The notes below the pieces were generated by a model, which did not search any database, was not told the origin of the DNA, and worked only from the letters and a program-made list of their open reading frames with translations. Positions 1,194-26,226 of a stretch of DNA of 32,730 bases are shown here, in pieces. Positions within the stretch are counted from its first letter, which is position 1. Every line of letters starts with the position of its first letter. A program made the translations under genes and the position numbers. The stretch is from the NCBI GenBank assembly GCA_947457925.1, contig CANGYA010000020.1, positions 1-32,730 of the forward strand, given 5' to 3'. This DNA is from Cytophagales bacterium. GTDB lineage: Bacteria > Bacteroidota > Bacteroidia > Cytophagales > Thermoflexibacteraceae.

Positions 1194-1235
1194 TAGGAGT
1201 AATTATTTAAGTAATGTAAGTTGCGTAGTATAAAA

Positions 1236-1407
1236 TGTACCGTACCCTTTAGGGTGCAAGGTCAATGATATAATTTTTCAAACTTAATATTTTAATTTAG
1301 TGTCGTGCTATAACTTTTTAAGGCACGACACTATATTAAAATCGTTATACAACAATAAACTTAAAATTTAACTTATATTGACCTTGCACCCTAAAGGGTA
1401 CGGTACA
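1236..1407. repeat. ~170-bp nested inverted-repeat element: perfect 31-bp terminal arms (1236-1266 / 1377-1407) enclosing an inner 11-bp IR (1298-1308 / 1323-1333) and AT-rich sub-palindromes
   Basis: Direct reading: GTACCGTACCCTTTAGGGTGCAAGGTCAAT ... ATTGACCTTGCACCCTAAAGGGTACGGTAC is an exact reverse complement. Inner TAGTGTCGTGC/GCACGACACTA is also exact. Sits between the paiB start and the stop of the OmpA-propeller gene. Confidence 0.8.
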
Positions 1408-1439
1408 CTACTCAACTTATGCTAATTAAAAATTACACT

Positions 1440-3071
1440 TTACCAGCTCAAAATTCGCATTTCTACTCGTCTGTTTTTTTCGGTGCTAAAACTTGCGACT
1501 AAAGGCTTGCTACCTCCGTAGGCTTTCGTAACAATTCGGTCTTGTTTCACGCCACCTGCGACCAAAAACAAAGCCACTGCATCTACCCGTCTTTGCGAAA
1601 GGTCTAAGAATTGCTGCGAAATTTTGTCATAATCAGGGTGATTCGTATCGGGGTTGCGGTCTGTATGCCCCGATAATTCTATGCTTGCTGTTGGATTTTC
1701 TATCATGAATTTAAGTAGTTGATTCACACCGTCATAGCTAATCAACTCCTCACTATTCGTCTTGAAAAAGATGCCTTTTAACTGAATAACTGCCCCTTTC
1801 TTTATTTCTTGTCCTTGAATCACAGCTACTTTGTTTTCGTCTGCTTTGGGTTCAACCTTTGTTACCACAGGCGTAACAACTTCTTCAAAATCAGGTCTTT
1901 CTACAGGTTTGGCAGCCAATAATTCTTCTGGTACTTTGTAGGGTGTAGGTGCTTTTACTGTTAAGGTTGGTGCAGCTACTTTTTTAGTTGGTATGGGTAT
2001 GGCTTTTTTGCGTTGTGGCGAGGCTGTCAAGATAATTTTTTCGGGCATAGGTTCAGGTTTTGGCTGCTCCACAGGGCGAGGGTCTAATTTATACAAGCCG
2101 TCATCAAACGTACCAATCCAAATCATATCGTCTTTGTCTAAGGCTAAACAAGTGGCTTGGCGAGATTTAAAATTAGAGTTTTTGGGTTCATAAATAACCC
2201 TGTCTTCGGTTTCATATCGGGCTAAACCATGTCCCGCAGCCCAAATTACGCCTTTTCGGTCTATCAATAAATCTTTGACCACTGTAAATTCATCTTTACC
2301 TTTTACTTTGTGTACTTCATTGTTGCAATAAACCATTGGTTTACTGCGTTTTTCCATACACAAACACACATTATTTTTACGGTCTGTCGTAATTGCCGTT
2401 ACCCAACCATTCATATCATACAAATCCCAAATGCTGCCGTCTTTTGTACTACATAAACCTTTGTCTGTGCCTACCCACTTTACATCTTCACTATCTACGG
2501 CAATGGCGTAAATATGATTACTTGGAATTTCGTACACCGTAGAAATATCGTAATTGTACCATTTTCCTTTGTCGTCCAGCATCCATACACCACTTTCCTT
2601 AGTTGCCACCCATTTCTTGCCTTGTTGGTCTATGGCAATACCCATGATGTAGTGATTTTTGTTTTGGAAATTGGGCATTTCATAATGTCTTACATATTGC
2701 CCTTCTCTGTTGAGTTGTATCAATGAAACGCCATTGTGGTAAGAACCTACCCACTTATTGCCCGACCTGTCCACTGCTATAGCCGTAATGTGCCGCAATA
2801 AGGTATCAGTTGTATGTGGATTGCTGTAAGGTTGCCATGCTTGGGCTACTGTATCTCCTGTAAATTTGTAAAATAACGTATTTGTGCCTACCCACTTTAT
2901 GCCGTCTTGGTCGACTGCCACACACAGCACCTCGCCCAACTGCATATTAGCGGGTTCATATTTTCTAAAAATTTGGGCATACAAAGGAAAAATATTGATG
3001 ACTACAAGCCAACTTGCTACTAATCCTAAAAGTAGGTTACGCTGCATACTTATTTTCATTGAATCTCTCAA
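1440..3071 (-). CDS. Secreted β-propeller (two-component-regulator-propeller/Reg_prop-like repeats) protein with Pro-rich linker and C-terminal OmpA-family peptidoglycan-binding domain
   Basis: N-terminal signal/TM segment. Repeated 'KWVGT / KWVAT / VWMLD / IWIGT' propeller-blade motifs. P/E/K-rich linker (PKPEPMPEK...KAPTPYKVPEEL). The C-terminal ~110 aa (TNSEELISYDGVNQLLKFMIENPTASIELSGHTDR...RRVDAVALFLV...NRRVEMRIL) matches the OmpA_C-like domain. Confidence 0.7.
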   Translation of the reverse strand: MRDSMKISMQRNLLLGLVASWLVVINIFPLYAQIFRKYEPANMQLGEVLCVAVDQDGIKWVGTNTLFYKFTGDTVAQAWQPYSNPHTTDTLLRHITAIAVDRSGNKWVGSYHNGVSLIQLNREGQYVRHYEMPNFQNKNHYIMGIAIDQQGKKWVATKESGVWMLDDKGKWYNYDISTVYEIPSNHIYAIAVDSEDVKWVGTDKGLCSTKDGSIWDLYDMNGWVTAITTDRKNNVCLCMEKRSKPMVYCNNEVHKVKGKDEFTVVKDLLIDRKGVIWAAGHGLARYETEDRVIYEPKNSNFKSRQATCLALDKDDMIWIGTFDDGLYKLDPRPVEQPKPEPMPEKIILTASPQRKKAIPIPTKKVAAPTLTVKAPTPYKVPEELLAAKPVERPDFEEVVTPVVTKVEPKADENKVAVIQGQEIKKGAVIQLKGIFFKTNSEELISYDGVNQLLKFMIENPTASIELSGHTDRNPDTNHPDYDKISQQFLDLSQRRVDAVALFLVAGGVKQDRIVTKAYGGSKPLVASFSTEKNRRVEMRILSW

Positions 3072-3204
3072 ATCTACATTTTTTTTCTAATACTTTATAG
3101 CAAATTATGAAAAAGTCAATTCTTTAATAGTGTATTTATTACACTATTTAACAGCTCTTGATTAATATGAAATATTGAGTATATTTTCTAACAATAAAAA
3201 AACT

Positions 3205-3624
3205 CTATTGAATAGAAAAATTAACCGTGGTCGTTGTTTTTTCATTCAACTGTATATCACATTTGTAAGTACCTTTTTGCCAAGGTCTTGCCAAAGAAAA
3301 CGGAAAAACTACTTGTTGGCTCAATGAATCTGTAATTGCCTCTAAAGCCCGTACTTCGTAGTTCTCAAAACCACCTTCCGCCTCCACAGCTATTAAAGTA
3401 GCAACAAGTTTTGCCCCAGCCTCTTTTTTATTCAGTTGTACGACACAATGAAAAGTATTGTCTGTAGCAGGTACTACCGCCAGTTTTTCGCCTACTTGCC
3501 CTTCTTTGTCCTTAGCTATATATACTTCGCTAATAGCCAATGCTTGTGTCGTTTCTTTGGTCGAATTACAAGCATACATAATAAAAGTAAACACAAAAAG
3601 AATAAAAGAGTGTGTAAAACGCAT
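3205..3624 (-). CDS. Hypothetical lipoprotein (139 aa)
   Basis: Signal peptide with lipobox-like Cys (FTFIMYAC|NSTKE). No recognisable domain. Confidence 0.5.
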   Translation of the reverse strand: MRFTHSFILFVFTFIMYACNSTKETTQALAISEVYIAKDKEGQVGEKLAVVPATDNTFHCVVQLNKKEAGAKLVATLIAVEAEGGFENYEVRALEAITDSLSQQVVFPFSLARPWQKGTYKCDIQLNEKTTTTVNFSIQ

Positions 3625-3715
3625 AGCGTATGTAATTTTTAATTAGTAAATTTTAAATTAAGACTTTCCAAGTTTTATAAACTTGAAAAGTCTTACAACG
3701 GCACTATATTATGTA

Positions 3716-4813
3716 CTACACATTGAAACGGAAGTGCATAATATCTCCGTCTTGTACCACATAGTCCTTGCCTTCTACACCTATTTTCCCTGCATTACGG
3801 CAAGCTGCTTCGGTTTTATATTGCTGATAGTCATTGATTTTAATTACTTCTGCACGAATAAAACCACGTTCAAAGTCAGAGTGAATGACCCCTGCTGCTT
3901 GTGGGGCTTTCCAACCTCTAAGAATTGTCCAAGCACGTACTTCTTTTTCGCCTGCGGTAAAGTAAGTAATAAGGTTCAACAAACTGTAGGCAGCACGAAT
4001 CAACTTATTTAAGCCAGACTCTTTCAAGCCGTATTCTTCCAAAAATAACTGTTTTTCTTCTTCGGTGTCCATAATAGCAATTTGCGACTCTATGGCAGCA
4101 CACACCATAATTACTTGTGCATTTTCGTCTTTTACGGCATTTTTCAATGTTTCAACGTATTCATTGCCCGAAATAATAGACTTTTCATCTACATTCGCCA
4201 CATAAATTACAGGCTTGATAGTCAATAAGAACAAATCAGCTACGGCTTCTTTTTCTTCGGCTGTTACGTCTAAACCTCTTGCATTTTTGCCTTGCTCCAA
4301 ATGGGCTTTGAATCTTTCTAAAGCTGCCAACTCTTTTTTGGCTTTGTCATCACCTATCTTTGCTGCACGAGAAACCTTCAATAGTTTCTTTTCAACTGCC
4401 TCCAAATCTTTGAGTTGTAGCTCCATGTCTATCACCTCTTTGTCTGATACAGGGTCGACTTTGCCTGCTACGTGAATCACGTTGTCGTCTGCAAAGCACC
4501 GAACTACGTGAGCTATGGCATCTACTTCGCGTATATTTGCCAAAAATTGGTTGCCCAAACCTTCGCCTTTGCTTGCTCCTTTAACTAAACCCGCAATATC
4601 CACAAATTCGAAAACTGTAGGAATTACTTTTTGAGGATTTACCAAGTCTTCTAATACCTTCAGGCGGTTGTCTGGTACTGTTACCACTCCCACGTTAGGC
4701 TCTATAGTACAGAAAGGATAATTAGCTGCTTCGGCTTTGGCACTCGACAGTGCATTGAAAAGAGTTGATTTACCTACATTTGGCAAACCAACGATACCAC
4801 ATTGCAAACCCAT
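3716..4813 (-). CDS. ychF: Redox-regulated ribosome-binding ATPase YchF (Obg-family GTPase)
   Basis: [23 protein letters not shown]... G1 motif, 365 aa, TGS domain at the C-terminus. Unmistakable YchF/OLA1. Confidence 0.95.
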
Positions 4814-5128: not shown

Positions 5129-6223
5129 TTAATTACTGTTTTTGGGTGCAAATAGTTTTTTGGTATCTACTGTTAAGCCAATCGTATGTACTGCCCCTGC
5201 GATGTGCTGCACACTGTAGGCATAGTTACATTCAAAGGCTTTGAGGCGGAGCATAAAGCCCAAAGACAAGCCTGTCAAGCCCTTGCTTACGCCTTGAATA
5301 CCCAACTCTCTGCGTGTCAGGAAATTATAACCTGCTCGTACCTGAAAACTATTGCTTAAAATTATCTCTGTACCTACCACAAAACGGCTCGTTAGTTTTT
5401 CTACAAAATTGGGGGATTGATGAATAGGATTGCCGTTTTCGTCTGTGGCATTGGCGATATTGGGATTGTCATAAATAATGTCTGTAGGATAAAAATGATG
5501 TACGGTAAAAGACAAACGAAAAGGCATTTTTTTAGGCTTAAAACTTGTTCCCACCTGCACATCAAAAGGCATTGTAAAGTTATTGACTGCTGTATAATTA
5601 CTTAAGGCAAAGCCTACATTTTTTACGACCATGCCTACTCTAAAATCATGTTTGGGGTGAATAAATGCACCGCCCATGTCCACCAACAAAGCACTGCTAC
5701 CATAACCCGCAATTTGGGAGTTTACAAATTTGATACTACCGCCCAAACTAAACACACCAACTTGTTTGGCATAGCCAAGAGCCAAGGCGTAGTCTGTGGC
5801 AGAAAAACTATTGGTAGGGTTGCCCAATGCGTCATAGCCTTGTATCGTGCCGTAGTTGAGGTACTGAATACCTGCCGACCAGTTGCCTGTGCGTGCATGA
5901 TGCCAACCGAAAGTAGTGCAGAGTTGCGAAATGCCTGCGTAGTAGCTCGTGTAGTTGAGGCTAAGTTGGCGGTGGTTGTCTGCGTGAGCTAAGGCGGGGT
6001 TTTGCCAAAACATATTCACATCTTGTGTAGTAGCCGAAACATTCATGCCTCCCAAAGCTGCAATGCGTGGATTTTGGGGCAATTTGACGAAATTAAAAGA
6101 ACTTCGCCCTCCTAAGTTTTGGGCTACTGCCCACGAACAACTAAGGAATAAGCAACCTACCAATACGCCTACTATTTTGGACACTACGGTAAAACCTGTA
6201 AATATTTTTGAGCTAAAAAACAT
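5129..6223 (-). CDS. T9SS-associated outer-membrane β-barrel protein, PorQ-like (PorQ/PorV FadL-like family)
   Basis: Signal peptide followed by 'GGRSSFNFVKLPQNPRIAALGGMNVS', which resembles the PorQ-family N-terminal signature (G-x-S-F-x-F-L-x-L-P-x-x-A-R-x-x-A-L-G-G). Size ~360 aa, β-strand-rich, aromatic-rich. The assignment rests on motif recall rather than a search. Confidence 0.5.
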   Translation of the reverse strand: MFFSSKIFTGFTVVSKIVGVLVGCLFLSCSWAVAQNLGGRSSFNFVKLPQNPRIAALGGMNVSATTQDVNMFWQNPALAHADNHRQLSLNYTSYYAGISQLCTTFGWHHARTGNWSAGIQYLNYGTIQGYDALGNPTNSFSATDYALALGYAKQVGVFSLGGSIKFVNSQIAGYGSSALLVDMGGAFIHPKHDFRVGMVVKNVGFALSNYTAVNNFTMPFDVQVGTSFKPKKMPFRLSFTVHHFYPTDIIYDNPNIANATDENGNPIHQSPNFVEKLTSRFVVGTEIILSNSFQVRAGYNFLTRRELGIQGVSKGLTGLSLGFMLRLKAFECNYAYSVQHIAGAVHTIGLTVDTKKLFAPKNSN

Positions 6224-6380
6224 GGTAGTTTGTGAATAAATAGAAAATTATTTGATTCATTAGAGATTATTAAGTTGTTGTAACATAGATTTTAGTCTGT
6301 GTAATAATTAATTGATTAGCAATGTATTACAGGCACAGACTAAAGTCTATGCTACAGACCTTAATAAGTTCTATTAAAGA

Positions 6381-6424
6381 TTAAAAAAAACTAACAGTAT
6401 ATTCGCCTAAAGACGAATATACTG
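6381..6424 (-). terminator. Intrinsic terminator for the cytidylyltransferase gene (hairpin CAGTATATTCG-cctaaaga-CGAATATACTG, then UUAGUUUUUUUU on minus strand)
   Basis: 11-bp perfect stem 6395-6405/6414-6424, 1 nt after the stop at 6426-6428. A-run at 6381-6390 on plus corresponds to a U-run on the minus transcript. Confidence 0.7.
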
Positions 6425-6425
6425 C

Positions 6426-7103
6426 TTAACCATTGTAATATTTATGAGCCATTTCCGTCAAAGTAAAGTCTATTTCTTCGTCGATGTCTAAGGCTTCGGA
6501 CTTCGGAATTTCAAATAAATAAGGACGGTTGCCGATACGATTGTGTTTTTCTTCTAAGAGTTGTTTGCTGAAAATATACATACAAGAGTTTTCTTCGTAA
6601 ATAGGCGGAAGGTCTTGTGTACGCAACAAAATATTAGGATTGTGGTTCACTGCCCTTGCCAAACCGTCCCACAAACGAGTTTGTAGCCTTGTAACCGTAA
6701 ATAGTGAGTCGTAAATAGGATATTGACCAATGAATTGTTCTATGGCTTTGCTAATCGTAGCTGCTTTGAGCAAAGGGTTGGTACTGTGTGTTTGCAAGTA
6801 AAAATCGGCTGGCACTTGGTTCACAATATTCAATAAAACGTCATTCATCGGGATATTGCCATCTCTTAGGTGTTCGGGGCGTTGTAATACAAGCACTTGC
6901 GGAAATACCTCTTTGGCATAGTCCATAATCACAGGGCTGTCTGTGTCTATCACCACTTTGTAAAGCTGTGGACAATCCAATAAACTCTGTATGATATGGT
7001 GAAAAAGAGGTTTGCCGTTAAAATCTCTGTAGTTTTTGCCTTTTACTCTTTCGCTGCTGTGTCGCATGGGGATAAGAGCTACTATAGTCGGTTTTTGTCG
7101 CAT
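6426..7103 (-). CDS. Acylneuraminate (CMP-nonulosonic acid / CMP-sugar) cytidylyltransferase family protein
   Basis: 225 aa. N-terminal 'IVALIPMRHSSERVKGKNYRDFNGKPL' matches the CMP-NeuAc/CMP-Kdo synthetase-type cytidylyltransferase motif (IPAR-GSKR-KN). Confidence 0.7.
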   Translation of the reverse strand: MRQKPTIVALIPMRHSSERVKGKNYRDFNGKPLFHHIIQSLLDCPQLYKVVIDTDSPVIMDYAKEVFPQVLVLQRPEHLRDGNIPMNDVLLNIVNQVPADFYLQTHSTNPLLKAATISKAIEQFIGQYPIYDSLFTVTRLQTRLWDGLARAVNHNPNILLRTQDLPPIYEENSCMYIFSKQLLEEKHNRIGNRPYLFEIPKSEALDIDEEIDFTLTEMAHKYYNG

Positions 7104-7177
7104 GGTAGTAAAGTGGTTGATTATTCAAAAACAATATTGAACAAATATAGAAATTAGGTATTGAAAAGGCAGGAATT

Positions 7178-7237
7178 TATTAAAAAAACTATTACTACTA
7201 CCAAGTGCATTGCAGCATTTGGTAGTAGTAATAGTTT
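7178..7237 (-). terminator. Intrinsic terminator downstream of the DUF2147 gene (19-bp stem 7186-7204/7219-7237, 14-nt loop, U-rich tail on minus strand)
   Basis: AAACTATTACTACTACCAA / TTGGTAGTAGTAATAGTTT are an exact inverted repeat. The minus-strand transcript continues UUUUAAUAAA. Confidence 0.65.
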
Positions 7238-7302
7238 TGCAAAAACTTAATGAATTACCTACTAAAAAACTCTATAATTTTTAGTAGGTATATTAAATGG
7301 TG

Positions 7303-7791
7303 TTATTTGCCTGTAGTTACAGAAGTTTTTACTTGTAATCTTTTCCAAGTATCTGTTTTGCCAAACAACGAAACACCAATAAAGCCACGCACTTCCATCG
7401 TGTTGGGGTCTGGCATTTCTACTTTACAGCTATACGTGCTACCACTTTCTGGGTCATAGATAGTTCCATTTTCCCATAGTTTTTCGCCTTTGTACTCAAA
7501 ACCTTGTAACAATAGATAGCCTAACAAGGGCGTAGTACGTTTGCTTTCGTCTGGGTTGTTTTTATCTACCTTTGGTTTGCCCGTATTAGGGTCGTTAGGT
7601 TCTTTTAACCATACGATTCTCCCATAATATTTGCCGTCTTTTGCTTTGTAAATATTTACACGAGCTTTGCCGTTACTGGGTAACCAAAGTCCCACTAAGC
7701 CGTCTGCTTCTTGAGCCATTGCATTTGTACCTAAAAAGAACAAAAATGCGAAAAATACTGAAAGTTTTAAGATGGTGTTTTTCATACTCAA
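7303..7791 (-). CDS. DUF2147 domain-containing secreted protein
   Basis: Signal peptide. 'GLWLPSNGKARVNIYKAKDGKYYGRIVWLKEP...GTIYDPESGSTYSCKVEMPDPNTMEVRGF' matches the DUF2147 pattern (G-W...G-x-Y-x-G-K-I...YDP-x-x-G-K-x-Y-x-C-K-M). Confidence 0.65.
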   Translation of the reverse strand: MSMKNTILKLSVFFAFLFFLGTNAMAQEADGLVGLWLPSNGKARVNIYKAKDGKYYGRIVWLKEPNDPNTGKPKVDKNNPDESKRTTPLLGYLLLQGFEYKGEKLWENGTIYDPESGSTYSCKVEMPDPNTMEVRGFIGVSLFGKTDTWKRLQVKTSVTTGK

Positions 7792-7844
7792 TGATTAATG
7801 GTTTTAAAAGTAAATGATAAAAGTGAAAACAAGATTTTAGGATT

Positions 7845-8948
7845 TTATGGACTTACTAAATTGATACTTACATTGAAGTACAATGGATTGGTAACACTGT
7901 TTGTGAATACATAAGGGTCATTGCTAAAGAAGCTGCGGAAAGGGTCGCCATGGTCTATATTATAGCTATTTCTCCAGTTGTAACGGTAGCCTGCTTGCAC
8001 AGACAGCCAAATGAAGTCATACAAAGACCTTTCATAAATGACACGCAAACGCAATTCAGACCTTTTCAATTCTAAGTCATGGTGCATTTTGCCATCTGCA
8101 TTAAACACCATATCTCTGTTTTGCAAACGGTACGTATGCCCTTCTAATTCATAACCCAACATCAGTAAACTTCTTGGGCTAAAAGAACGGCGGTAATGAG
8201 CCCTTGCAGGAAACACAGCCTCTACACCCCATTTGCGGTTTTCAGAAGTATAATTATACAAAACAACAGGAATGTAGTTTAATGCACCTACTCTGTAAGT
8301 ACGAGCAGCACCAAAACCAAATTGCAGACGGTCATGCTTTTTCCAACCAAATACGCCCAACACACTGTGTCGTAGGTAGCTCAAAGACTGCCATTCGTTT
8401 AGGCGATAGTCGCCATTAAGGTCGTGGCTGGTTTGTAGCAAAATAAAATTCTTTTCGTTCAAAGGCTTGAATACGGTAAGATTTACGCCTGTACTACGCA
8501 AGGCAGACGCATTCAAAGATTTTGTAAGCCCACTTGTCAATTCAGCAGGTTTTTCAAAACTGTAGTTGGTTTCCATGTAGGTAGCCCCTAAGTTCACTGT
8601 AATTTTATTGTGAGAAATCACAGGGAAATTAGCTAAAAAACGCAAACCATGTGCAGCCGATACTTTGTTAGTGCTTTCCTTAGTTCCTCCACCTGTATTA
8701 GAGGTCATGTCATAACCTAATTGGTAGTCATAGCCCAAAGACACCAATTTAGTAGGGCTAATCCCAAAGATTTTTGAGGTGCAATATCTCTTTACGCCTG
8801 AAGCCTCCTCTATATCGCCTGCAAACTGGCTAAAATCCATTTCTGGCTCACCACCTGCCGCTGCCGTAGAGTCTGCTGTAGTTTGTGCATAAGCCGTAGC
8901 AACACCTAAACAGCTTAACATGGCAGCCGTTACAAATAATTTTTTCAT
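7845..8948 (-). CDS. Hypothetical outer-membrane β-barrel protein (signal peptide, 367 aa)
   Basis: Cleavable signal peptide (AYAQ). Alternating-hydrophobic, aromatic/Gly-rich composition typical of OM β-barrels. No specific family recognised. Confidence 0.4.
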   Translation of the reverse strand: MKKLFVTAAMLSCLGVATAYAQTTADSTAAAGGEPEMDFSQFAGDIEEASGVKRYCTSKIFGISPTKLVSLGYDYQLGYDMTSNTGGGTKESTNKVSAAHGLRFLANFPVISHNKITVNLGATYMETNYSFEKPAELTSGLTKSLNASALRSTGVNLTVFKPLNEKNFILLQTSHDLNGDYRLNEWQSLSYLRHSVLGVFGWKKHDRLQFGFGAARTYRVGALNYIPVVLYNYTSENRKWGVEAVFPARAHYRRSFSPRSLLMLGYELEGHTYRLQNRDMVFNADGKMHHDLELKRSELRLRVIYERSLYDFIWLSVQAGYRYNWRNSYNIDHGDPFRSFFSNDPYVFTNSVTNPLYFNVSINLVSP

Positions 8949-9061
8949 CTTGTCGTTGATAGGTTAAGATAGTATAAAAATTTCCGACATTAAAATAGTA
9001 TTAATTTTTGTATTAACAATTAGTGTGCTAAAATGTTTTAAAAAAACAAGGCTACTATTTT

Positions 9062-9385
9062 TTAGTCTTCATCTATCAACATATTTTGATACGCATTTTG
9101 GAGTTCTGCCAATGCCTTGCGGTCTTGTTGCAACTGACATTGCTGTATGCCTTGTTGGTAAATTTCTTCGGCTTTTTGGCGTTGGTTCAGTGCTACCAAT
9201 ACCTCTGCATAATGGTAATAGGTGGCGGTGTAGGTCGGAAAATCTTTTACCAACCTTTCATAATATGGTAAAGATTTTTTGGGGTCAATGTTTTTATATT
9301 CATTAGCTACGGCATACAATAAAAACGTATCGTTGGGTTCTGCTGTTAGCCATGTGAGGAGTTGTTCTAAACGGGTCATAAACAA
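9062..9385 (-). CDS. Small tetratricopeptide-repeat protein
   Basis: 107 aa with TPR-like helical repeats (YYERLVKDFPTYTATYYHYAEVLVALNQRQKAEEIYQQGIQ). Lies 81 bp downstream of, and co-directional with, the double-AAA gene. Confidence 0.55.
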   Translation of the reverse strand: MFMTRLEQLLTWLTAEPNDTFLLYAVANEYKNIDPKKSLPYYERLVKDFPTYTATYYHYAEVLVALNQRQKAEEIYQQGIQQCQLQQDRKALAELQNAYQNMLIDED

Positions 9386-9466
9386 ATAGTTTTTGAGTAA
9401 ACTACATTACAGAAAACCTATAAGATTTTAGAAATCTTATAGGTTTTAATTGTTAATTATTAATTG

Positions 9467-12127
9467 TTACCGCATAAACCCAATCCGTTTAGAGTTGCCT
9501 GCTTCCTCGTCTATATTGAAGTCTTTGAGGTCTTCTACGGTCAGGGTTGCCAACATTTCGGCAGTGCGTAGTTTTTTGTCTATCATAGACATACGCAAGT
9601 GTTGGTTTTTTACAGCCTGCTGAATAATCTTACGTACAGACCTTGCATTACCAAAGTATTTATCCCTGCGGTCATACAAAGTTTTGAGGTACTTTTGCAG
9701 ATGTACTTCCGCCTCTGCGTCAGGCACAAGCCTTTCTATCATCAGCATAGACGCAGCTATTTCATATAAATCTTCGGCAGAGTAATCTTGAAAAACAATG
9801 GTCTTGTCGAAACGAGATTTTAACCCGGGGTTCATTTCTATAAACCTGTCCATGTTGTCGGGGTAGCCCGCCGCAATTACAATGAACTCACCACGTTTGT
9901 CTTCCATCTGCTTCAGTATTACTTCTAAGGCTTCTTTGCCAAAGTCGTTGCCTGTTTCGGAGGCTAATGCGTAGGCTTCATCTATAAATAACACGCCACC
10001 TACGGCTTCATCTATTTTTTCTTTGGTCTTAATGGCAGTCTGCCCCACAAAACCAGCTACTAAGGCTTGTCTATCGCACTCTACCACATGCCCACGTTCC
10101 AACACACCCAAAGCCTTGTAAATCTTGGCAATGATACGAGCCACCGTAGTTTTACCAGTTCCGGGGTTGCCCTTAAAAATGGTGTGCATAGAGAAACGAC
10201 CCAAAACATCTTTGCCCGTTTCTTTGTAAAACTGCACAAGTTTCACTAAGTCATGCACCTGATTTTTCACCTCCCGCAAGCCTATCATGGTGTTGAGTTC
10301 AGACATTGCCTCTTGTAACAGAGAGTCGTCCACAGGTAATTCTGGTAGGCGTTTTTCCTTGCTCTTAAATACTTTTTCTACGTCCTCAAACGTAATGGTG
10401 CGTAGAGTTTCTTCAGATACTTTGGTGTTGCTGCCTGCCGTAGCTTCCGAACTTTTCATGACACGCAAACCCATGTTCATTTTCGCCTCATCTACCAATG
10501 AATTGACCAAACGGGCATTGCCGAAAGAATTGTCCCTTGCTCTGTATGCCTCTGTAATTTTTTTGAACAAATAGGCTTGTGCGTCCTCCGTAAATGCCAC
10601 ATTGCGTTGCGTTGCACACAATTCCGCAATTTGATGTAATTCTTGTGGCAAATAATCTGGAAAATCGAAATACAAGTTAAATCTTGACTTGAAACCGGGA
10701 TTTGAACCCAAAAAAACGTCCATTTCTTTGGGATAGCCCGCCACAATAATTGCAATGTCGCCTGTGCCATCAGACATTTCTTTGATAAGGGTTTCTACTA
10801 CTTCTTGACCGTAGTCTTTTGTGTCTTCTTTGCTCCTTATCAATGAATACGCCTCGTCTATGAATAGTACGCCACCTTTGGCTTTTTCTATGGCTTCTTT
10901 CACTTTGGGGGCTGTTTGTCCGATGTACTGCCCTACCAAATCTGCTCTGCCTACTTCGTGTACTTTTCCGTTGCTCAATAAGCCCATTTTGTGGTAAATC
11001 TTGCCCAACATCTTGGCTAAACTCGTCTTACCTGTCCCAGGATTGCCTTTGAAAACAGAATGTAAACTTATTTTTTGCGATTCGTCAAAACCTTGTTCTT
11101 TCCGCAACTGCAAAAATTTGAGGTAGTGAATATAATCCTTTACTCTTGCTTTTACAGGCTCCAGACCTATCATAGAATTTAATTTTTCCATGACATCATC
11201 TAAAGTTTCGTTGGGGTCTTCTGGCTTGTGCGTGGCTTGTGGCAAAATGGCATTACCTGTCAAAATAGGACTGACACCCTCTATAAATTCATCGTTTGCC
11301 TCAAAAGTAACCACAGCTATCAACTGATCCATGAAAATCACTTGTAACGTATATTTATCTTCGTACCAAGTTCCTTTGCTATCAGACCCCCAACCAGTCG
11401 TAACGGTAACAGAATCGTCTTCGGGGTTTATTTTCTTCACTTCTACTGTTCTTCCTTTGAGTTGCCCCGCATCATTGTAAAAATGAAAGAACATTTCACA
11501 ATACCAAGAAGACGACTGTAAGTTGTTGATATTCAACTCTGCCCATACATAACGAGTATCTTTAGCATTGAAATGAGTGTAGTACACTCTTTCTTCTGCC
11601 CCTACGCCCTTGTTAGGTCCTTCATAAAGTTTGATACTTTCTATGTCAAAATAAGGGTTTTCATCGGGTGTTACCGAACCACCATTTTCTACATAAAAAT
11701 ATTTAGTTCCTACTAAATCCTCGTCCATGTAGGCTTCCCACACATAGTCGCCACGTACCCAAAACACACCTACTTCTTTGTTGCCCCAACCCTCACGGAT
11801 TTGCACAATATTGTCTTCTTTAGACACATGATAGTCAAGGTCTATAGAGCATAATTCTTCCCGAATATTTTTTTCTTTGAGGCGAAAGGCTTTTAGTTTT
11901 ATTTTAATGTCCCAGTCTTCTTCGTCAAATAATTTATTGTAAAAAGACAATTCGGCATATAAATAGCTCGTTTCGCTGTTTTCAAAGACACTACGATACT
12001 TCTTTTTACCATCGGCTAACCACTCCGTAGAGGCATAGACCTTTAAGTCTTTAAATTTATATTTTTTATCTAATGGCGGCATGAATGTAATAGTATGTGG
12101 TGATGAAATTTTTAGCATACTATACAT
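9467..12127 (-). CDS. Tandem CbbX/SpoVK-type AAA+ ATPase with duplicated N-terminal domain of unknown function
   Basis: Two complete AAA modules (FKGNPGTGKTSLAKMLGKIY...GVLFIDEAYSL and FKGNPGTGKTTVARIIAKIY...GVLFIDEAYAL) matching the CbbX/SpoVK/EccA signature. The N-terminal ~290 aa shows an internal duplication (Y-x-[YW]AEL...N and GWG-x4-G-x-W-x4-Y motifs each occur twice). Confidence 0.75.
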   Translation of the reverse strand: MYSMLKISSPHTITFMPPLDKKYKFKDLKVYASTEWLADGKKKYRSVFENSETSYLYAELSFYNKLFDEEDWDIKIKLKAFRLKEKNIREELCSIDLDYHVSKEDNIVQIREGWGNKEVGVFWVRGDYVWEAYMDEDLVGTKYFYVENGGSVTPDENPYFDIESIKLYEGPNKGVGAEERVYYTHFNAKDTRYVWAELNINNLQSSSWYCEMFFHFYNDAGQLKGRTVEVKKINPEDDSVTVTTGWGSDSKGTWYEDKYTLQVIFMDQLIAVVTFEANDEFIEGVSPILTGNAILPQATHKPEDPNETLDDVMEKLNSMIGLEPVKARVKDYIHYLKFLQLRKEQGFDESQKISLHSVFKGNPGTGKTSLAKMLGKIYHKMGLLSNGKVHEVGRADLVGQYIGQTAPKVKEAIEKAKGGVLFIDEAYSLIRSKEDTKDYGQEVVETLIKEMSDGTGDIAIIVAGYPKEMDVFLGSNPGFKSRFNLYFDFPDYLPQELHQIAELCATQRNVAFTEDAQAYLFKKITEAYRARDNSFGNARLVNSLVDEAKMNMGLRVMKSSEATAGSNTKVSEETLRTITFEDVEKVFKSKEKRLPELPVDDSLLQEAMSELNTMIGLREVKNQVHDLVKLVQFYKETGKDVLGRFSMHTIFKGNPGTGKTTVARIIAKIYKALGVLERGHVVECDRQALVAGFVGQTAIKTKEKIDEAVGGVLFIDEAYALASETGNDFGKEALEVILKQMEDKRGEFIVIAAGYPDNMDRFIEMNPGLKSRFDKTIVFQDYSAEDLYEIAASMLMIERLVPDAEAEVHLQKYLKTLYDRRDKYFGNARSVRKIIQQAVKNQHLRMSMIDKKLRTAEMLATLTVEDLKDFNIDEEAGNSKRIGFMR

Positions 12128-12437: not shown

Positions 12438-14435
12438 ATGTCTGAGAACCAAGAAAGCAAAAAACCTTTTTTATCCAAATCCTCACCCAATGGTCGTGGT
12501 AATTACCAGATTTGGCTCTTAGTGAGTTTGGTGTTATTAATTGTAGGGCTTACGTATTTCAATAAAACTAATACAGTAGGAGAAATTACCGAGCAACGTT
12601 TCCAACGTATGTTAGACGAGGGAGATGTAAAAGAAATTATTATTGTCAAAGGAGCTAATGAAAATCATTTTGTAGAGGTTTTTTTGAAACCCGAAACTCT
12701 TGCTAAATACCAAAAAGACTTTGGACAACAAAACCCTTTTGCGGTTCGCCAAGGTCCTCAATATAGATTTGACATTAGTGATGTAAAAGAATTTAAGGAA
12801 AATCTTAAAACTTGGCAAAAAGAAATACCAGATATAAACAGAATAGCCTACAAAATAGATAATAACCGTACAGACTTTACAAGTTGGTTTTTTAGCTGGG
12901 GCTTCTTCATTTTGTTGTTGTTTGGTTTCTATTTGCTTATGCGGAGAATGGCAGGTATGGGACCGGGTGGTCAGATTTTCAATATTGGTAAATCTAAAGC
13001 AGCCTTATTTGATGCAGACAATAAAGTGAAAATTACTTTTGCAGACGTAGCAGGCTTAGATGAAGCCAAAGAAGAAGTACAAGAAGTAGTGGATTTCTTA
13101 AAACACCCTTCTAAATACACGAACTTAGGTGGTAAAATTCCAAAAGGTGTGTTATTAGTAGGACCTCCCGGAACAGGTAAAACCTTGTTAGCCAAAGCCG
13201 TAGCAGGTGAGGCAGGTGTCCCTTTTTTCTCCTTGTCAGGTTCAGATTTCGTAGAAATGTTTGTAGGTGTAGGTGCAGCCAGAGTACGTGATTTGTTCCG
13301 CCAAGCCAGAGAAAAAGCCCCTTGTATCATCTTCATCGACGAGATTGATGCCATAGGTAGGTCAAGAGGACGTGGTGCAATGCCGGGTTCTAATGACGAA
13401 AGAGAAAATACATTGAACTCCTTGTTAGTAGAAATGGACGGTTTCGGTACAGATTCGGGTGTTATAATCATGGCAGCTACCAACAGACCAGACGTTTTGG
13501 ACAGTGCTTTGTTGCGTCCCGGTCGTTTTGACAGGGAAATTAGTGTAGATGTGCCAGATATTGCAGGACGTGAGGCTATTCTCAAAGTGCATTTACAACC
13601 TCTCAAATTAGCAGCAGACGTAGATGTCAAGAAAATAGCAGCCCAAACACCGGGTTTTGCAGGGGCAGAGTTGGCGAATTTGTGTAACGAGGCAGCCCTC
13701 ATTGCAGCCCGCCGCAACAAACCAGCCGTAGAATTGCAAGATTTCCAAGATGCCGTAGATAGAGTCATTGGCGGTTTGGAAAAGAAAAACAAAATTATTT
13801 CTCCCGAAGAAAAAAATATTGTGGCATATCACGAAGCTGGTCATGCCATTGCAGGTTGGTTCTTAGAACACGCCAATCCGTTGGTAAAAGTAAGTATTGT
13901 ACCAAGAGGCGTAGCTGCGTTGGGTTATGCCTTGTACTTGCCAAAAGAACAGTTTTTACGCACAGCAGAACAGTTGATAGACGAAATTTGTGTGTCTTTG
14001 GGCGGTAGAGTAGCTGAAGATATTGTTTTTGGTAAAATCTCTACAGGTGCTTTGAGTGATTTGGAGCATATCACCAAAGTAGCTTACAGCATGATTACGG
14101 TCTATGGTATGAATGACAAAATAGGTAACATTTCTTTCTACGACTCAAAAAGGTCTGAATATGCTTTTGATAAACCGTATTCAGATGCTACAGCCGAATT
14201 AATAGACAAAGAAGTGAAGATTTTGATAGAAGGTGCTTATCAACGTACCAAAAACTTGTTGGTAGAAAAACGCAGAGAGTTAGAAATATTAGCTCAAGAA
14301 TTGTTGAAAAAAGAAGTAATTTTCCAACATGACCTTGAACTGTTGATTGGTAAAAGACCTTTTAATCACCCAACGGCTTATGAAGAATATGTAAAAAATT
14401 CTCAAACGCCTAACGCAACATCTGAAAGCAAATAA
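12438..14435 (+). CDS. ftsH: ATP-dependent zinc metalloprotease FtsH
   Basis: 665 aa. N-terminal TM segments, AAA module (VLLVGPPGTGKTLLAKAVAGEA, IIFIDEIDA), SRH, and zinc motif HEAGHAIAG. Confidence 0.97.
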   Translation: MSENQESKKPFLSKSSPNGRGNYQIWLLVSLVLLIVGLTYFNKTNTVGEITEQRFQRMLDEGDVKEIIIVKGANENHFVEVFLKPETLAKYQKDFGQQNPFAVRQGPQYRFDISDVKEFKENLKTWQKEIPDINRIAYKIDNNRTDFTSWFFSWGFFILLLFGFYLLMRRMAGMGPGGQIFNIGKSKAALFDADNKVKITFADVAGLDEAKEEVQEVVDFLKHPSKYTNLGGKIPKGVLLVGPPGTGKTLLAKAVAGEAGVPFFSLSGSDFVEMFVGVGAARVRDLFRQAREKAPCIIFIDEIDAIGRSRGRGAMPGSNDERENTLNSLLVEMDGFGTDSGVIIMAATNRPDVLDSALLRPGRFDREISVDVPDIAGREAILKVHLQPLKLAADVDVKKIAAQTPGFAGAELANLCNEAALIAARRNKPAVELQDFQDAVDRVIGGLEKKNKIISPEEKNIVAYHEAGHAIAGWFLEHANPLVKVSIVPRGVAALGYALYLPKEQFLRTAEQLIDEICVSLGGRVAEDIVFGKISTGALSDLEHITKVAYSMITVYGMNDKIGNISFYDSKRSEYAFDKPYSDATAELIDKEVKILIEGAYQRTKNLLVEKRRELEILAQELLKKEVIFQHDLELLIGKRPFNHPTAYEEYVKNSQTPNATSESK

Positions 14436-19416: not shown

Positions 19417-20709
19417 TTATTTGTTACTACCAGCACGAATCATTGCACAACGGAAACCTATGGTTGAAGTAGAAGAATCTTCTTCTAAATAACGGCGAGT
19501 ACCGGGAGCTAACCAGTAAGCTACGTCTTTCCAAGAACCACCTTTATACACACGCACTTTGTTGTCAATCAATGTAGTAAAGTTAGTTTTATCATACATT
19601 TTTACATCATCAACATAATCAACTGTTTTCTTACGCAATGGGTCAGGGTTGCTTCTTACAAGATACTTACCATCTGTACGTACAGGGTTCAAGTCTTGCA
19701 CATCTTCAAATGACAATGGACGATACACATCTTCTACCCATTCGTTTACGTTACCAGCCATGTTATACAAACCGAAGTCGTTTGGTGGGAAAGCATAAAT
19801 CCAATCTGTAATCATAGCACCGTCATTCAATTTACCTGCAATACCCGCATAATCACCACGACCACGTTTGAAGTTGGCTAAGAACATACCCATTTGGCGA
19901 CCATAAGGGTTACGCAAAGAGTGTCCGTCCCAAGGGTAAATACGTTGATAATCGTTATTTTCATCTAAATATTGCGTACCCACCATCGCCTTTGCAGCAT
20001 ATTCCCACTCAGCTTCTGTTGGTAAACGGTAGCCCGGTAATACTACACCAGATTCCAAAGGAATACGTCCACTACCATCTTTTGCCATTTGTTTTTCTTC
20101 TTTGTTACCATTTTTCATGGCTAACACTCTGTTTACAGCTTCTGTACGCCAGATAGAGTAGTTTTGAGCTTGTTTCCAGTTTACACCCACCACAGGGAAG
20201 AAACGAAAACCGGGATAACGCAAATAATGGTCGATATAAGGGTCGTTAAACGCCAATTCAGCAGCCCATACTAAGGTATCTGGTAATGCTTCTTCGTAAT
20301 ATTGTTGTCCAGAATCTTTTGCAAATTGCAAATATTCTAACCAGTGAATGTTCGCAACTTCGGTTTCGTCCATATAAAAAGACGCAACAGTTACTGTTCT
20401 TTCCAAGTTATCTCTGGCAGTTAAAAGGTCTTCTTCTTGTGAACCCATCACATGACGACCACCCTCGATAAATACTAAGTTAGGACCATCGGGCTGTCCT
20501 TTGAACTTACGCACTGCAAATTGTCCTTCTTTTGGTTTGCCTGTATTATACTTCAAACCAGTAGCAGTACTTGATTTCCCCGGCTTTATGCTTGTTGGTT
20601 TGCCCTTACCGCAACCTGTGAGCAGTGTTGCCACACACAGCACCAAACAGCCAATCAAATGCACTTTTTTCATCATATCCCTAAAAAGTAAGTCGCTATT
20701 AGATTCCAA
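19417..20709 (-). CDS. FGE-sulfatase (SUMF1) domain lipoprotein, GldJ/GldK (PorK)-family
   Basis: Lipoprotein signal (LLTGC|GKGKP). FGE-domain motifs (RLPTEAEWEYAA, NMAGNVNEWVEDVY, RVYKGGSW). C-terminal ...IGFRCAMIRA as in GldK/GldJ. No gldLMN downstream, so either a stand-alone paralog or GldJ-like. Confidence 0.6.
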   Translation of the reverse strand: MESNSDLLFRDMMKKVHLIGCLVLCVATLLTGCGKGKPTSIKPGKSSTATGLKYNTGKPKEGQFAVRKFKGQPDGPNLVFIEGGRHVMGSQEEDLLTARDNLERTVTVASFYMDETEVANIHWLEYLQFAKDSGQQYYEEALPDTLVWAAELAFNDPYIDHYLRYPGFRFFPVVGVNWKQAQNYSIWRTEAVNRVLAMKNGNKEEKQMAKDGSGRIPLESGVVLPGYRLPTEAEWEYAAKAMVGTQYLDENNDYQRIYPWDGHSLRNPYGRQMGMFLANFKRGRGDYAGIAGKLNDGAMITDWIYAFPPNDFGLYNMAGNVNEWVEDVYRPLSFEDVQDLNPVRTDGKYLVRSNPDPLRKKTVDYVDDVKMYDKTNFTTLIDNKVRVYKGGSWKDVAYWLAPGTRRYLEEDSSTSTIGFRCAMIRAGSNK

Positions 20710-23604: not shown

Positions 23605-25176
23605 TTGCATACGACAATGGTCAAACCCATCCGCATACTTCTTTTCTTGTTTTACATAGCTTGTTTCATGGCTGTTATTATGGTAATGTCGCCAAAGGAA
23701 ATTCCTTTGGGCAATGATTTAGCCATAAAAGTTATGTCTGTTGAAGATTTTAGCCCTTCCGAAGCCGACACGCAACAAGTGGATATGACAGCTTTTTTAG
23801 AAAAGCAAGTTCAATTAGACAGCCTTGCTAAAGTGCGTGAAGCCCAATTAGCTGCCCAAGAAGACTCTATAAACCGCCTCAAATTGGCAGGAGCTACAGA
23901 CGGCAAGGAAATGACCACACGCAAGGAAAGAACAGAAACCATTGGAGATGTAAAATATACGATTCAGTACCCCGACAGTGGGGCATACTATGCCTTAGAC
24001 AACTTTTTTGCTTCTTTACAGTCCCTTTCTGAAAAACCCAACCTTATTAGGGTTGTACATTATGGCGACTCACAAGTAGAAGGAGATAGAATTACGGATT
24101 ATTTACGCAACCGTATGCAAACAAGATTTGGCGGTTGTGGTGTTGGAATTGTGCCGTTGTTAGAAAAACAGGCTTTTCGGAACACCATAAGTTCTGACGA
24201 GGCAGGGAATTGGCAAAAAATAGCTGTTTATGGCGACAACAAAGGTAAACCTAACCAATTTTATGGCTTATTAGCCTCCATGTACCGTTTTGCTCCAGCC
24301 CTTAACAAAGATTCTTTGAGTGATAAAGTCTATAAGTCTTGGGTAAAATATAAAGAAACAGGCTATTTGAGCAAAACAGATTTGAATAATAAAATAGAAA
24401 ACATCAAGATTCTTTACAATAGCCCCAAAAACGAATTAACAACAAGCATTACGATTGATAGGGCTGGTAAAAATGAAAATGATACTACCTTTAAGTACAA
24501 ATTGCCACAACAAGACCAAAGAGGCGTAGTGGGGCTTTTTGAGCAAGTGATTGAAACAAGGTTTAAGAAAGTAAATATGAGTTTTGAGGCGGAGGCAGGT
24601 ACGGAATTTTATGGGGTGGCGTTTGACTGTCATACAGGCGTGGCGGTGGACAATGTGGCGTTGCGGGGTAGTGCAGGTGTAGAATTTACGAAGATGAACA
24701 AGGATTTTGTTCGCCAACACCTCAAAAAAATGAATGTAAAATTGTTGATTTTACAGTTTGGTGTAAACGTAGTGCCAAGCCCTGTAAGTAATTATAGTTT
24801 TTATGAAAAATTGGTCATTAAACAGTTGCGTTTCTTCAAGTCTATAGACCCCGATTTGGCTATTTTGGTCGTTGGCGTGTCTGATATGGCACATAAATCG
24901 GGTACAGGCTACGTTTCTTACGCTAATATCCCCAAAATTAGAGATGCCCAACGCAATGCAGCCTTTGCCACTGGTTGTGCTTTTTGGGATTTGTACGAGG
25001 CTATGGGTGGTGCAGGAGCTATGAAAAGTTGGGTAAGTTCACGCCCACCATTGGCAGGAAAAGATTATACACACTTCAACTCAAGAGGAGCAACGGTAGT
25101 AGGTGAAATGTTGTACGAGGCTTTGATGAAAAGTTATGAGGAGTACAAAGAAAGGAATAAAGTTATTTTTCCGTAA
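23605..25176 (+). CDS. Membrane-anchored SGNH/GDSL-hydrolase family protein
   Basis: N-terminal TM helix. SGNH block I (VVHYGDSQVEGDRIT) and block V (KDYTHFNSRGATVVGEML). 523 aa. Confidence 0.5.
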   Translation: MHTTMVKPIRILLFLFYIACFMAVIMVMSPKEIPLGNDLAIKVMSVEDFSPSEADTQQVDMTAFLEKQVQLDSLAKVREAQLAAQEDSINRLKLAGATDGKEMTTRKERTETIGDVKYTIQYPDSGAYYALDNFFASLQSLSEKPNLIRVVHYGDSQVEGDRITDYLRNRMQTRFGGCGVGIVPLLEKQAFRNTISSDEAGNWQKIAVYGDNKGKPNQFYGLLASMYRFAPALNKDSLSDKVYKSWVKYKETGYLSKTDLNNKIENIKILYNSPKNELTTSITIDRAGKNENDTTFKYKLPQQDQRGVVGLFEQVIETRFKKVNMSFEAEAGTEFYGVAFDCHTGVAVDNVALRGSAGVEFTKMNKDFVRQHLKKMNVKLLILQFGVNVVPSPVSNYSFYEKLVIKQLRFFKSIDPDLAILVVGVSDMAHKSGTGYVSYANIPKIRDAQRNAAFATGCAFWDLYEAMGGAGAMKSWVSSRPPLAGKDYTHFNSRGATVVGEMLYEALMKSYEEYKERNKVIFP

Positions 25177-25389: not shown

Positions 25390-26226
25390 TTAGTCTATTA
25401 CTTTAATATCAAAAATCACATCTTGGTCTGCGGTGTTGCTGCCATTACGAACAAAACTTTTTACTCGTAACAAACCTCTTTTGCCCGCAGCATTTTGGAA
25501 AATATACACCCCATTTTGAACAACACTTATAGAAGTAGCCGATGGCGTAGCAGCAGTAGTTAGTTCTTGGCGAGTTACTGTATCAAAATTAAGGTTAGAA
25601 CTGGCAAAAGTTGTTCTTGTCCAACCTGTTCTACCGCCCACACTAAGCCCCAAACTCTCACGACTATCAGGAGAAACGAAAGTAGGATTACCACTTACGA
25701 TACCATACGTAATATCCACATTTGCCGTATTTGCATTCGCAGAGTTAGAAATTGTATTGGTGGAGCTTGCATAAAAACTACCTGCACTACTCAATGTCGC
25801 AGCATTTTGGTTCAATAGGCGAATGTCATTGGTGTTATTTACACCTGTGCCTACATTCAAGGTATAAGTAGCCTCTTGCGTGTTTCCTTTGGTGTCTTGT
25901 GCTACAAAACGGAACGAAAGTGTACGCCCTGCATCTACAACTGCCGTTGTGTATTCAAAATTATACTGAAAAGTAGTGCCTGTTAGTCCTGCACGCAAGT
26001 CGAGAGAAGAATTGTTTTTAGATACTTCTAATTGTTTCAAGGTGTTGGGAGCAGAAACACTCACCGTAAAAGCTACTTTTTCACCTACTTTGGCAGTAGC
26101 AGGAGCAGACGAAGGCACTGTTACCGTAAAACTTGTAGGGGTAGGCGTAGGTGTTTCTGTTGTAAGATTACACGCAGACAATAAGCCTACTAAAACCAAA
26201 ACAAAATACAACGATAATTTTTTCAT
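25390..26226 (-). CDS. Thr/Ser-rich hypothetical lipoprotein (278 aa)
   Basis: Signal peptide with lipobox (LLSAC|NLTT), TPTPTPT linker, β-rich Ig-like composition. No family recognised. Confidence 0.45.
   Translation of the reverse strand: MKKLSLYFVLVLVGLLSACNLTTETPTPTPTSFTVTVPSSAPATAKVGEKVAFTVSVSAPNTLKQLEVSKNNSSLDLRAGLTGTTFQYNFEYTTAVVDAGRTLSFRFVAQDTKGNTQEATYTLNVGTGVNNTNDIRLLNQNAATLSSAGSFYASSTNTISNSANANTANVDITYGIVSGNPTFVSPDSRESLGLSVGGRTGWTRTTFASSNLNFDTVTRQELTTAATPSATSISVVQNGVYIFQNAAGKRGLLRVKSFVRNGSNTADQDVIFDIKVID

Follow-up and report, generated by a model that had tools for sequence, protein, structure and literature searches.

A tandem SpoVK/CbbX/EccA-clade AAA+ ATPase of Bacteroidota with a duplicated β-sandwich N-region and a conserved C-terminal IGF tail

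Introduction

The SpoVK-EccA-like clade of AAA+ ATPases is defined by a shared set of ATPase signatures, with variable N-terminal domains that recruit narrow clients (PMC11513918). The clade, which includes SpoVK, CbbX and EccA, is currently seen as one of single-ring, protease-independent chaperones. SpoVK is a protein of ~320 amino acids (aa) with a single ATPase module and a short N-terminal domain of three strands and one helix, and is confined to sporulating Bacillota, whereas EccA joins tetratricopeptide repeats (TPRs) and a related AAA module in one chain (PMC11513918). Here, we analyzed a 32,730-nucleotide (nt) stretch of DNA from a Cytophagales bacterium (contig CANGYA010000020.1, hereafter the window), in which a minus-strand gene at 9467..12127 encodes a protein with two ATPase modules of this clade, referred to below as the AAA protein. 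The modules are preceded by a pair of predicted β-sandwich domains and followed by a flexible tail carrying an Ile-Gly-Phe (IGF) motif. The clade itself and the logic of a variable N-domain on a conserved motor were already known; the searchable literature contains no description of the tandem motors, of this N-domain pair or of the IGF tail, and annotation of the family is generic.

Results

Domain organization of the AAA protein

The chain is arranged in the order N1, N2, linker, AAA1, linker, AAA2 and tail, with the following features (residues counted from the first ATG; the basis of each assignment is given in brackets).

9467..12127, minus strand: whole AAA open reading frame (ORF), 886 aa (ORF list, Pfam, NCBIfam, orthologs, full-length AlphaFold2 model)
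11678..12070, minus strand: N1 β-sandwich, aa ~20–150, with Y-L-Y-A-E-L ... G-W-G-N-K-E-V-G-V-F-W (hhalign, AlphaFold2, orthologs)
11273..11665, minus strand: N2 β-sandwich, aa ~155–285, with Y-V-W-A-E-L ... G-W-G-S-D-S-K-G-T-W (hhalign, AlphaFold2, orthologs)
11198..11272, minus strand: flexible, poorly conserved linker between N2 and AAA1, aa ~286–310 (conservation 0.39; predicted local distance difference test score (pLDDT) below 50 at model residues 276–289, numbered from M16)
10358..11197, minus strand: AAA1 with its lid, aa ~311–590 (Pfam, NCBIfam, 188 bits to CbbX, PDB 3SYL and 3ZUH)
9518..10312, minus strand: AAA2 with its lid, aa ~606–870 (Pfam, NCBIfam, 168 bits to EccA1, PDB 9LUR)
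9470..9517, minus strand: flexible C-terminal tail, aa 871–886, with K-R-I-G-F-M-R; IGF is aa 882–884, nt 9476..9484 (orthologs, pLDDT below 50, sequence read directly)

The exact protein is held in public collections in an 883-aa form that starts at M4 (12118), under the names "SpoVK/Ycf46/Vps4 family AAA+-type ATPase" and "AAA family ATPase" only. M16 (12082) is also a possible start because ortholog alignments begin only at about residue 12–23 of the window protein; M4 or M16, rather than the first ATG, is likely the real start. AlphaFold2 modeled the full-length chain as four confidently folded modules (pLDDT 84), leaving both linkers and the C-terminal 12 residues below 50. As this is a monomer prediction with a predicted template modeling score of 0.41, the relative placement of the domains in it is uncertain. 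The ORF, the N-domain duplication, the tandem ATPases and an adjoining TPR ORF, all described in the original prediction made from the sequence alone, were each present where it had placed them.

Two complete ATPase motors in one chain

Pfam identified two copies each of PF00004 and AAA_lid_6, and neither module matched the Clp/Hsp100-type AAA_2. The two modules are 41% identical to each other (BLAST E 4e-70). Among NCBIfam models the top match was TIGR02881 (SpoVK), with 518.7 bits over two stretches of the protein; this score is the sum of two modules and is therefore no sign of orthology to SpoVK. With both modules summed in the same way, TIGR02880 (CbbX) gave 446.2 bits against a cutoff of 459.25, and TIGR03922 (EccA), matched over the C-terminal half of the profile only, gave 433.7 bits against 466.65, so that both fell below threshold.

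The CbbX/SpoVK/EccA signature was recovered in both modules, as originally predicted: GNPGTGKT occupies residues 361–368 and 653–660, and GGVLFIDEAY ends at 427 and 719. Walker A (G361–T368 in AAA1, G653–T660 in AAA2) and Walker B (D424–E425, D716–E717) are accompanied by an A-G-Y-P sensor-1 in each module (G464–Y465, G754–Y755). The N-P-G-x-x-S-R-F motif reads N476-PGF-K480-S-R482 in AAA1 and N766-PGL-K770-S-R772 in AAA2, and both lids carry a sensor-2 Arg, the second arginine finger, within F-G-N-A-R (R539, R829). Across 21 diverse full-length relatives, the sensor-1 Gly is invariant in both modules and its Tyr is invariant in AAA2 and at least 90% conserved in AAA1; the Asn and Arg (R482, R772) of the N-P-G motif and the sensor-2 Arg are likewise invariant. 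Signatures of this kind define the clade in PMC11513918; one residue deviates, the Lys found four positions after the Asn (K480, K770), where CbbX has Arg. Each module has an aromatic pore loop: VGQYIGQTAPK with Y401 in AAA1, which differs little from the CbbX loop, and VAGFVGQTAIK with F693 in AAA2.

A relative of the N-region is encoded in at least 580 genomes of Bacteroidota (one genome per species scanned). The comparison of orthologous loci covers the best 80 of these at least 580, which yielded 69 complete ORFs. Two Walker A motifs were found in all 69 complete orthologs. With two complete modules per chain, each containing Walker A, Walker B and an aromatic pore loop, the AAA protein is at the sequence level a type II, or two-ring, AAA+ ATPase. 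Both rings should hydrolyze ATP, because Walker A/B, the sensor-1 Gly-Tyr, the Arg of the N-P-G motif and the sensor-2 Arg are retained in both. No mention of clade members with tandem modules was found in the text of PMC11513918.

A conserved tripeptide on the C-terminal tail

The tail that follows the AAA2 lid is variable except for [KR]-x-I-G-F-[KR], a feature absent from the original prediction. A tripeptide of the form [I/L/V/M]-G-F was present in 64 of the 69 orthologs (IGF in 57, LGF in 4, VGF in 2 and MGF in 1), at 0–19 residues from the C-terminus. It also recurs in 18 of 21 representative clusters with two AAA modules and in a single-module variant (P0125). The motif sits on a predicted flexible tether, since the last 12 residues, IGF included, have pLDDT below 50.

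Classical-clade unfoldases such as PAN and Mpa contact their peptidase through C-terminal tails. In Clp ATPases, the tripeptide (L/I/V)-G-(F/L) on a flexible element fits into the hydrophobic H-pockets of ClpP and so docks the two together (PMC8745299). The tail described here shares the sequence hallmark of ClpP-partner ATPases, a flexible element bearing a tripeptide of the (L/I/V)-G-(F/L) type, and we tentatively raise coupling to ClpP through this tail as a possible, though unlikely, property of the AAA protein. No clpP gene lies in the window.

The N-region as a branch of a β-sandwich repeat superfamily

The N-terminal 290 residues comprise two copies of a ~130-aa unit. Direct BLAST of the N1 half against the N2 half gave a weak match (19% identity over 133 aa, E 3e-6), and profile–profile alignment with hhalign, built on 40 homologs, related them with a probability of 99.1% (E 1.2e-18, 123 aligned columns). 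AlphaFold2 predicted two eight-stranded all-β sandwiches with a mean pLDDT of 90.7. The internal duplication proposed for this region is therefore real on both profile and model evidence. In the model, each module adopts a generic immunoglobulin-like (Ig-like) sandwich fold. A PDB sequence search returned no match and Pfam and NCBIfam returned nothing above noise; neither these resources nor the searchable literature assign the N-domain a function.

An exhaustive profile search placed the module in a much larger family of 1,328 clusters (50% identity) at E ≤ 1e-3, of which 530 reach 1e-10 or below and 181 reach 1e-30 or below. The initial description of the module as unrecognized thus holds for the window subfamily and fails at the wider level, where it is one branch of this large β-sandwich repeat superfamily. 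Distant relatives (profile E 1e-34 to 1e-53) match Pfam DUF3859 and DUF6941, both of which are uncharacterized and do not occur in the literature searched. Those repeats share the TRY-x-[WY]-E and G-W-G...PG-x-W-x-x-G-x-Y motifs with the N-module. However, the window modules reach neither model, and their homology to the matching repeats is through profile search alone: the window N-region had no match to DUF3859 or DUF6941 at E ≤ 1, and 3 of 40 subfamily members matched DUF6941 with E ≥ 0.0027.

Among the top 150 N-module clusters, 21 carry two AAA modules, 7 carry one (some being truncated fragments) and 27 carry other domains; the rest are module-only proteins or fragments. Stand-alone two-module proteins are real, as exemplified by the solitary P0072 and likewise by those at loci L091 and L092. 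At L093, a 292-aa two-module copy (6001-6879) lies 840 bp upstream of an 883-aa gene (7718-10369) and is 64% identical to the N-region of that gene; such a copy could be a competitor or regulator paralog of its full-length neighbor. A 1,145-aa protein, P0123, has four β-sandwich modules (the N-region twice) ahead of two AAA modules and ends in AGF, not IGF. Several distant relatives begin with a hydrophobic, signal-peptide-like N-terminus, as judged by reading the sequences.

Two apparent variants were set aside. At L090, what looked like a split arrangement, with a 497-aa tandem-AAA gene behind a two-module gene, is a frameshifted full-length gene; the contig name suggests 6x long-read coverage. 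A weak Por_Secre_tail match in P0126, at 25.3 bits below the cutoff of 27 and with no signal peptide, was not relied on.

Conservation and genomic neighborhood

At all 80 loci the relative is collinear with the window protein over N1-N2-AAA1-AAA2 at 53–84% identity, or is a copy cut by a contig end, and the 69 complete orthologous ORFs span 850–960 aa. The hosts belong to Cytophagales (including Thermoflexibacteraceae), Saprospiraceae and other Chitinophagales. Mean ortholog identity to the window protein is 61% for N1 and 52% for N2, compared with 60% and 59% for the two AAA cores; conservation of the N-modules at the level of the ATPase cores is as expected for a fixed binding partner. For divergence from Chitinophagales orthologs, the value for the AAA protein (55%) is close to that for the adjoining FtsH (62%).

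The window is an ordinary chromosomal, housekeeping context, in which the neighbors encode FtsH, DUF4139, an ECF sigma factor, GldJ, IF-3, IMP dehydrogenase, a CDF transporter and YchF. It contains no type VII secretion system (T7SS) genes, and Rubisco or cbb genes were found neither in the window nor among recurrent neighbors. No relatives were found on viral contigs. For the AAA protein, PADLOC returned only generic, partial AAA matches (IetA 1.2e-18, TRIP13, DolB); the TPR protein had no match.

The only recurrent neighbors of the AAA gene are themselves proteostasis AAA+ genes, namely FtsH and an atypical Clp/Hsp100. In the window, FtsH (12438-14435, plus strand) is divergent from the AAA gene across a 310-nt AT-rich spacer; it also lies directly upstream on the same strand in two Chitinophagales-type loci (L033, 1997-3844; L067, 2748-4685). 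These three cases, in two orientations among about 70 loci, suggest an adjacency more frequent than chance. The atypical Clp/Hsp100, a protein of ~1,080–1,120 aa that matches AAA_2 and ClpB_D2-small and whose N-terminal half is unusual, is encoded upstream of the AAA gene on the other strand (for example L040, 2467-5838, minus strand). Eighteen Saprospiraceae-type loci show it at a distance of no more than 4.5 kb, and in 15 of these the distance is about 570 bp or less. Lineage-limited synteny could account for this linkage.

Two individual loci stood out. One Saprospiraceae contig (L061) holds two full-length AAA paralogs in tandem (1201-3816 and ~6001-8643), whose identities with the window protein are 50% and 54%. 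A typical Bacteroidota-type copy with 55% identity occurs in a metagenome-assembled genome labeled "uncultured Roseobacteraceae" (L022), on a contig (CAZFQW010000203.1) that is probably mis-binned.

Discussion

Proposed function and mechanism

We interpret the AAA protein, with a probability of roughly 0.6, as a dedicated two-ring cytoplasmic AAA+ remodeler or unfoldase of the SpoVK-CbbX-EccA clade, in which the β-sandwich pair recruits a conserved endogenous client that is then threaded through the Tyr/Phe pore loops. The idea of a dedicated remodeler or disassembly machine, put forward in the original prediction, is still the best reading of an architecture conserved as one unit; its proposed TPR partner is dropped, and the AAA protein acts without the TPR gene product.

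By homology to hexameric CbbX, six subunits would assemble into two stacked rings, one of AAA1 and one of AAA2 modules. The Ig-like pair, carried on a flexible linker of ~25 aa, would bind a specific conserved client or ligand, as its position, its conservation and the rule of the clade suggest. Hydrolysis by both rings, for which each module carries the motifs, would power the cycle, and the client would be gripped and pulled by the aromatic loops at Y401 and F693. The disordered tails may then dock the AAA2 face onto a partner through [I/L/V/M]-G-F. The ClpP H-pocket is the most specific candidate for this docking site, in which case the machine would degrade its clients rather than act purely as a chaperone.

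Several observations weigh against this interpretation. Both modules have a Lys (K480, K770) where the N-P-G-F-R-S-R motif of CbbX has its first Arg. No client has been identified, and no operon partner is conserved across loci. [quoted passage not shown] IGF is only three residues long and could serve autoinhibition, inter-subunit contacts or another partner instead. Finally, the same N-region is fused elsewhere to TIR and EAD11 domains, and therefore points towards conflict systems.

Those fusions underlie the strongest alternative, a conflict or immune protein. Its β-sandwich pair would sense a perturbation or a molecule derived from an invader, and its tandem AAA modules would provide the output by unfolding or disassembling a target or by acting as a threshold; this output would be interchangeable with that of sister proteins, TIR or EAD11. 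Within the two-module subfamily, the N-region is joined to a C-terminal TIR in P0001, to an N-terminal ThsB-like TIR in P0091 (PADLOC 1e-28) and to EAD11 in P0054, P0058, P0134, P0146 and P0169. The N-region of P0001 is 78% identical to that of the window protein and its gene lies among DUF433/DUF5615/DUF2281 toxin–antitoxin-type genes. The context of the EAD11 fusion P0058 is a short stretch with an uninformative upstream gene. Among more distant multi-repeat relatives, the partner domains are caspase, trypsin together with SLH, a Ser/Thr kinase with a transmembrane segment after it, ankyrin, TPR, HEAT and a PQQ propeller; of these, the caspase, trypsin, kinase, ankyrin and TPR fusions make up a set of partners that typifies the systems reported in PMC7159879 and PMC8195603. 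The hosts, too, include filamentous and gliding Bacteroidota named in those studies, such as Haliscomenobacter.

Against such a role, the AAA form looks vertically inherited, its 53–84% identity across orders being similar to that of FtsH, and its surroundings in the window are housekeeping genes. The N-modules have changed as slowly as the motors behind them, and arms-race diversification was not seen. PADLOC yielded nothing beyond generic AAA matches, with its partial IetA hit at about 1e-18, and viral-contig relatives were lacking. A ThsA-like partner was looked for near P0091 and not found. Neither CbbX/SpoVK-type ATPases nor the N-module are mentioned in the main text of PMC7159879 or PMC8195603. 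We therefore regard a conflict role for the AAA protein as unlikely.

A broader and still more speculative proposal combines the two pathways: the Bacteroidota family would be a previously unrecognized ClpP-coupled unfoldase class built on SpoVK/CbbX/EccA motors, whose portable Ig-like pair reads a specific degron or ligand and has repeatedly been re-coupled to TIR, EAD11 and caspase outputs, thereby serving both proteolysis and cell-suicide or conflict pathways.

Another alternative, which we consider improbable, is a CbbX-like activase that would remodel the inhibited active site of Rubisco or another multimeric enzyme by tail pulling, with neither unfolding nor degradation. AAA1 is closest to CbbX and has an almost identical pore loop, and the characterized members of the clade are narrow-client chaperones, not degraders. 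However, the CbbX model stayed below its cutoff despite the contribution of two modules, the Rubisco and cbb genes are missing from the neighborhood, CbbX itself has no N-domain and no second ATPase ring, and an activase role would leave the IGF tail unexplained.

The neighboring TPR gene

Downstream of the AAA gene, the window continues with the following features.

9413..9447, minus strand: perfect inverted repeat (16-bp arms, 3-nt loop) separating the AAA stop codon from the start of the TPR gene (folding, shuffles)
9062..9385, minus strand: small TPR gene; a TTG start gives 107 aa, and the database form, which begins with the ATG at 9379, has 105 aa (TPR_19 and TPR_14 Pfam matches)
7845..8948: DUF6268 gene, downstream of the TPR gene
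7303..7791: DUF2147 gene, downstream of the TPR gene

The original prediction had joined the TPR gene and the AAA gene into a split EccA, in which the 107-aa protein (TPR_19 at 28.3 bits, cutoff 25) would bind substrate for the ATPase from a separate chain. The TPR ORF does lie 81 nt downstream on the same strand, EccA does hold both kinds of domain in one chain, and EccA1 is the best solved-structure match of AAA2. However, the two genes are separated by the hairpin, which has a folding energy of −17.5 kcal/mol (z −6.25; 0 of 200 shuffles were as stable), ends in a U-run and is likely both an intrinsic terminator and an insertion-prone boundary. Across the 80 related AAA loci, tblastn with the TPR protein detected no TPR homolog, and the gene downstream of the AAA gene varies in size and strand. 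A word-indexed homolog search with the TPR protein gave two relatives only; farther homologs near the AAA gene were checked by the same tblastn and by ORF inspection.

Close relatives separate the two genes directly. At L089, whose AAA protein falls in the same 90%-identity cluster, the FtsH–AAA arrangement is kept, and three opposite-strand genes stand between the AAA gene and a TPR-DUF6268-DUF2147 block. This cassette (7738-10893) encodes a 591-aa ParA/AAA_31-TIR_2 protein together with ORFs of 246 and 210 aa that have no Pfam match, and looks like a defense-type insertion at a hot spot, in the interval that holds just the hairpin in the window. In a second relative with at least 90% AAA identity, ribD directly follows the AAA gene; a 90%-identical TPR gene is on a different contig, after a peptidase S9 gene and before DUF6268 and DUF2147. 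A 47%-identical TPR homolog adjoins ETF and thioesterase genes. Because of its neighbors in these two close relatives, the TPR gene goes with DUF6268/DUF2147, not with the AAA gene; it is an incidental neighbor outside the system, and the proposed gene pair is not conserved. Together with the lack of T7SS genes in the window and the sub-cutoff EccA score, these results effectively refute a split EccA.

Elsewhere in the window, 19417-20709 (minus strand) encodes the gliding-motility lipoprotein GldJ in a short form (TIGR03530, 597 bits), as would fit a Cytophagales host that glides. Four ORFs, one of 836 aa, had no NCBIfam match at E ≤ 1e-5 (28875-31385 and 23605-25176, plus strand; 25390-26226 and 31452-32270, minus strand), and 5129-6223 (minus strand) had no Pfam match at E ≤ 1e-4.

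Implications

A two-ring form in hundreds of Bacteroidota species, combining a putative client-binding domain with a tail that resembles a ClpP-docking element, would extend the current picture of the clade, and coupling to ClpP, if true, would be new for SpoVK, CbbX and EccA relatives. The family would also be a candidate for a new regulated-proteolysis or remodeling pathway in a phylum whose proteostasis is little studied. Its N-module belongs to a large uncharacterized β-sandwich repeat family common to the AAA protein and to TIR, EAD11, caspase and kinase proteins; as the module is shared across output types, a ligand found in one setting would inform the others. For annotation, the TPR gene should not be counted as a partner, and the label "stage V sporulation protein K" is misleading.

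Comparison with known systems

The red-type Rubisco activase CbbX aligns with AAA1 over its whole ATPase and shares the VGQYIG-x-TAPK pore loop, the Gly-Tyr sensor-1, the NPG..SRF motif and AAA_lid_6; it is likewise a narrow-client remodeler. CbbX differs in having one AAA module, in lacking a β-sandwich N-domain and an IGF tail, and in its linkage to Rubisco. EccA of the T7SS belongs to the same AAA+ clade and places a substrate-recruiting N-domain before its ATPase, and its EccA1 structure is the best solved match of AAA2. In contrast to the window protein, EccA carries TPRs and a β-helix in the chain, has a single AAA module and resides among T7SS genes; the window protein has no TPR in its chain by Pfam, its adjoining TPR gene is incidental, and the window holds no such secretion genes. 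SpoVK, a MurG chaperone in the sporulation of Bacillota, supplies the top NCBIfam model and has clade-defining motifs in common with the window protein. The window protein differs from it in its 886-aa length, two modules, 290-aa β-sandwich N-region and occurrence in Bacteroidota.

Likeness in the tail extends to unfoldases outside this clade. In the HbYX-tailed PAN and Mpa, too, the motif follows the last lid and sits on a tail at the C-terminus. The Clp ATPases ClpX, ClpA and ClpC share the flexible (L/I/V)-G-(F/L) element (PMC8745299), and ClpA and ClpC also share the two-ring layout. They differ in being built from Clp/Hsp100 AAA_2 modules with the tripeptide in an internal loop, whereas the window protein combines classical AAA modules of the SpoVK/CbbX type with a C-terminal tripeptide and putative docking to ClpP.

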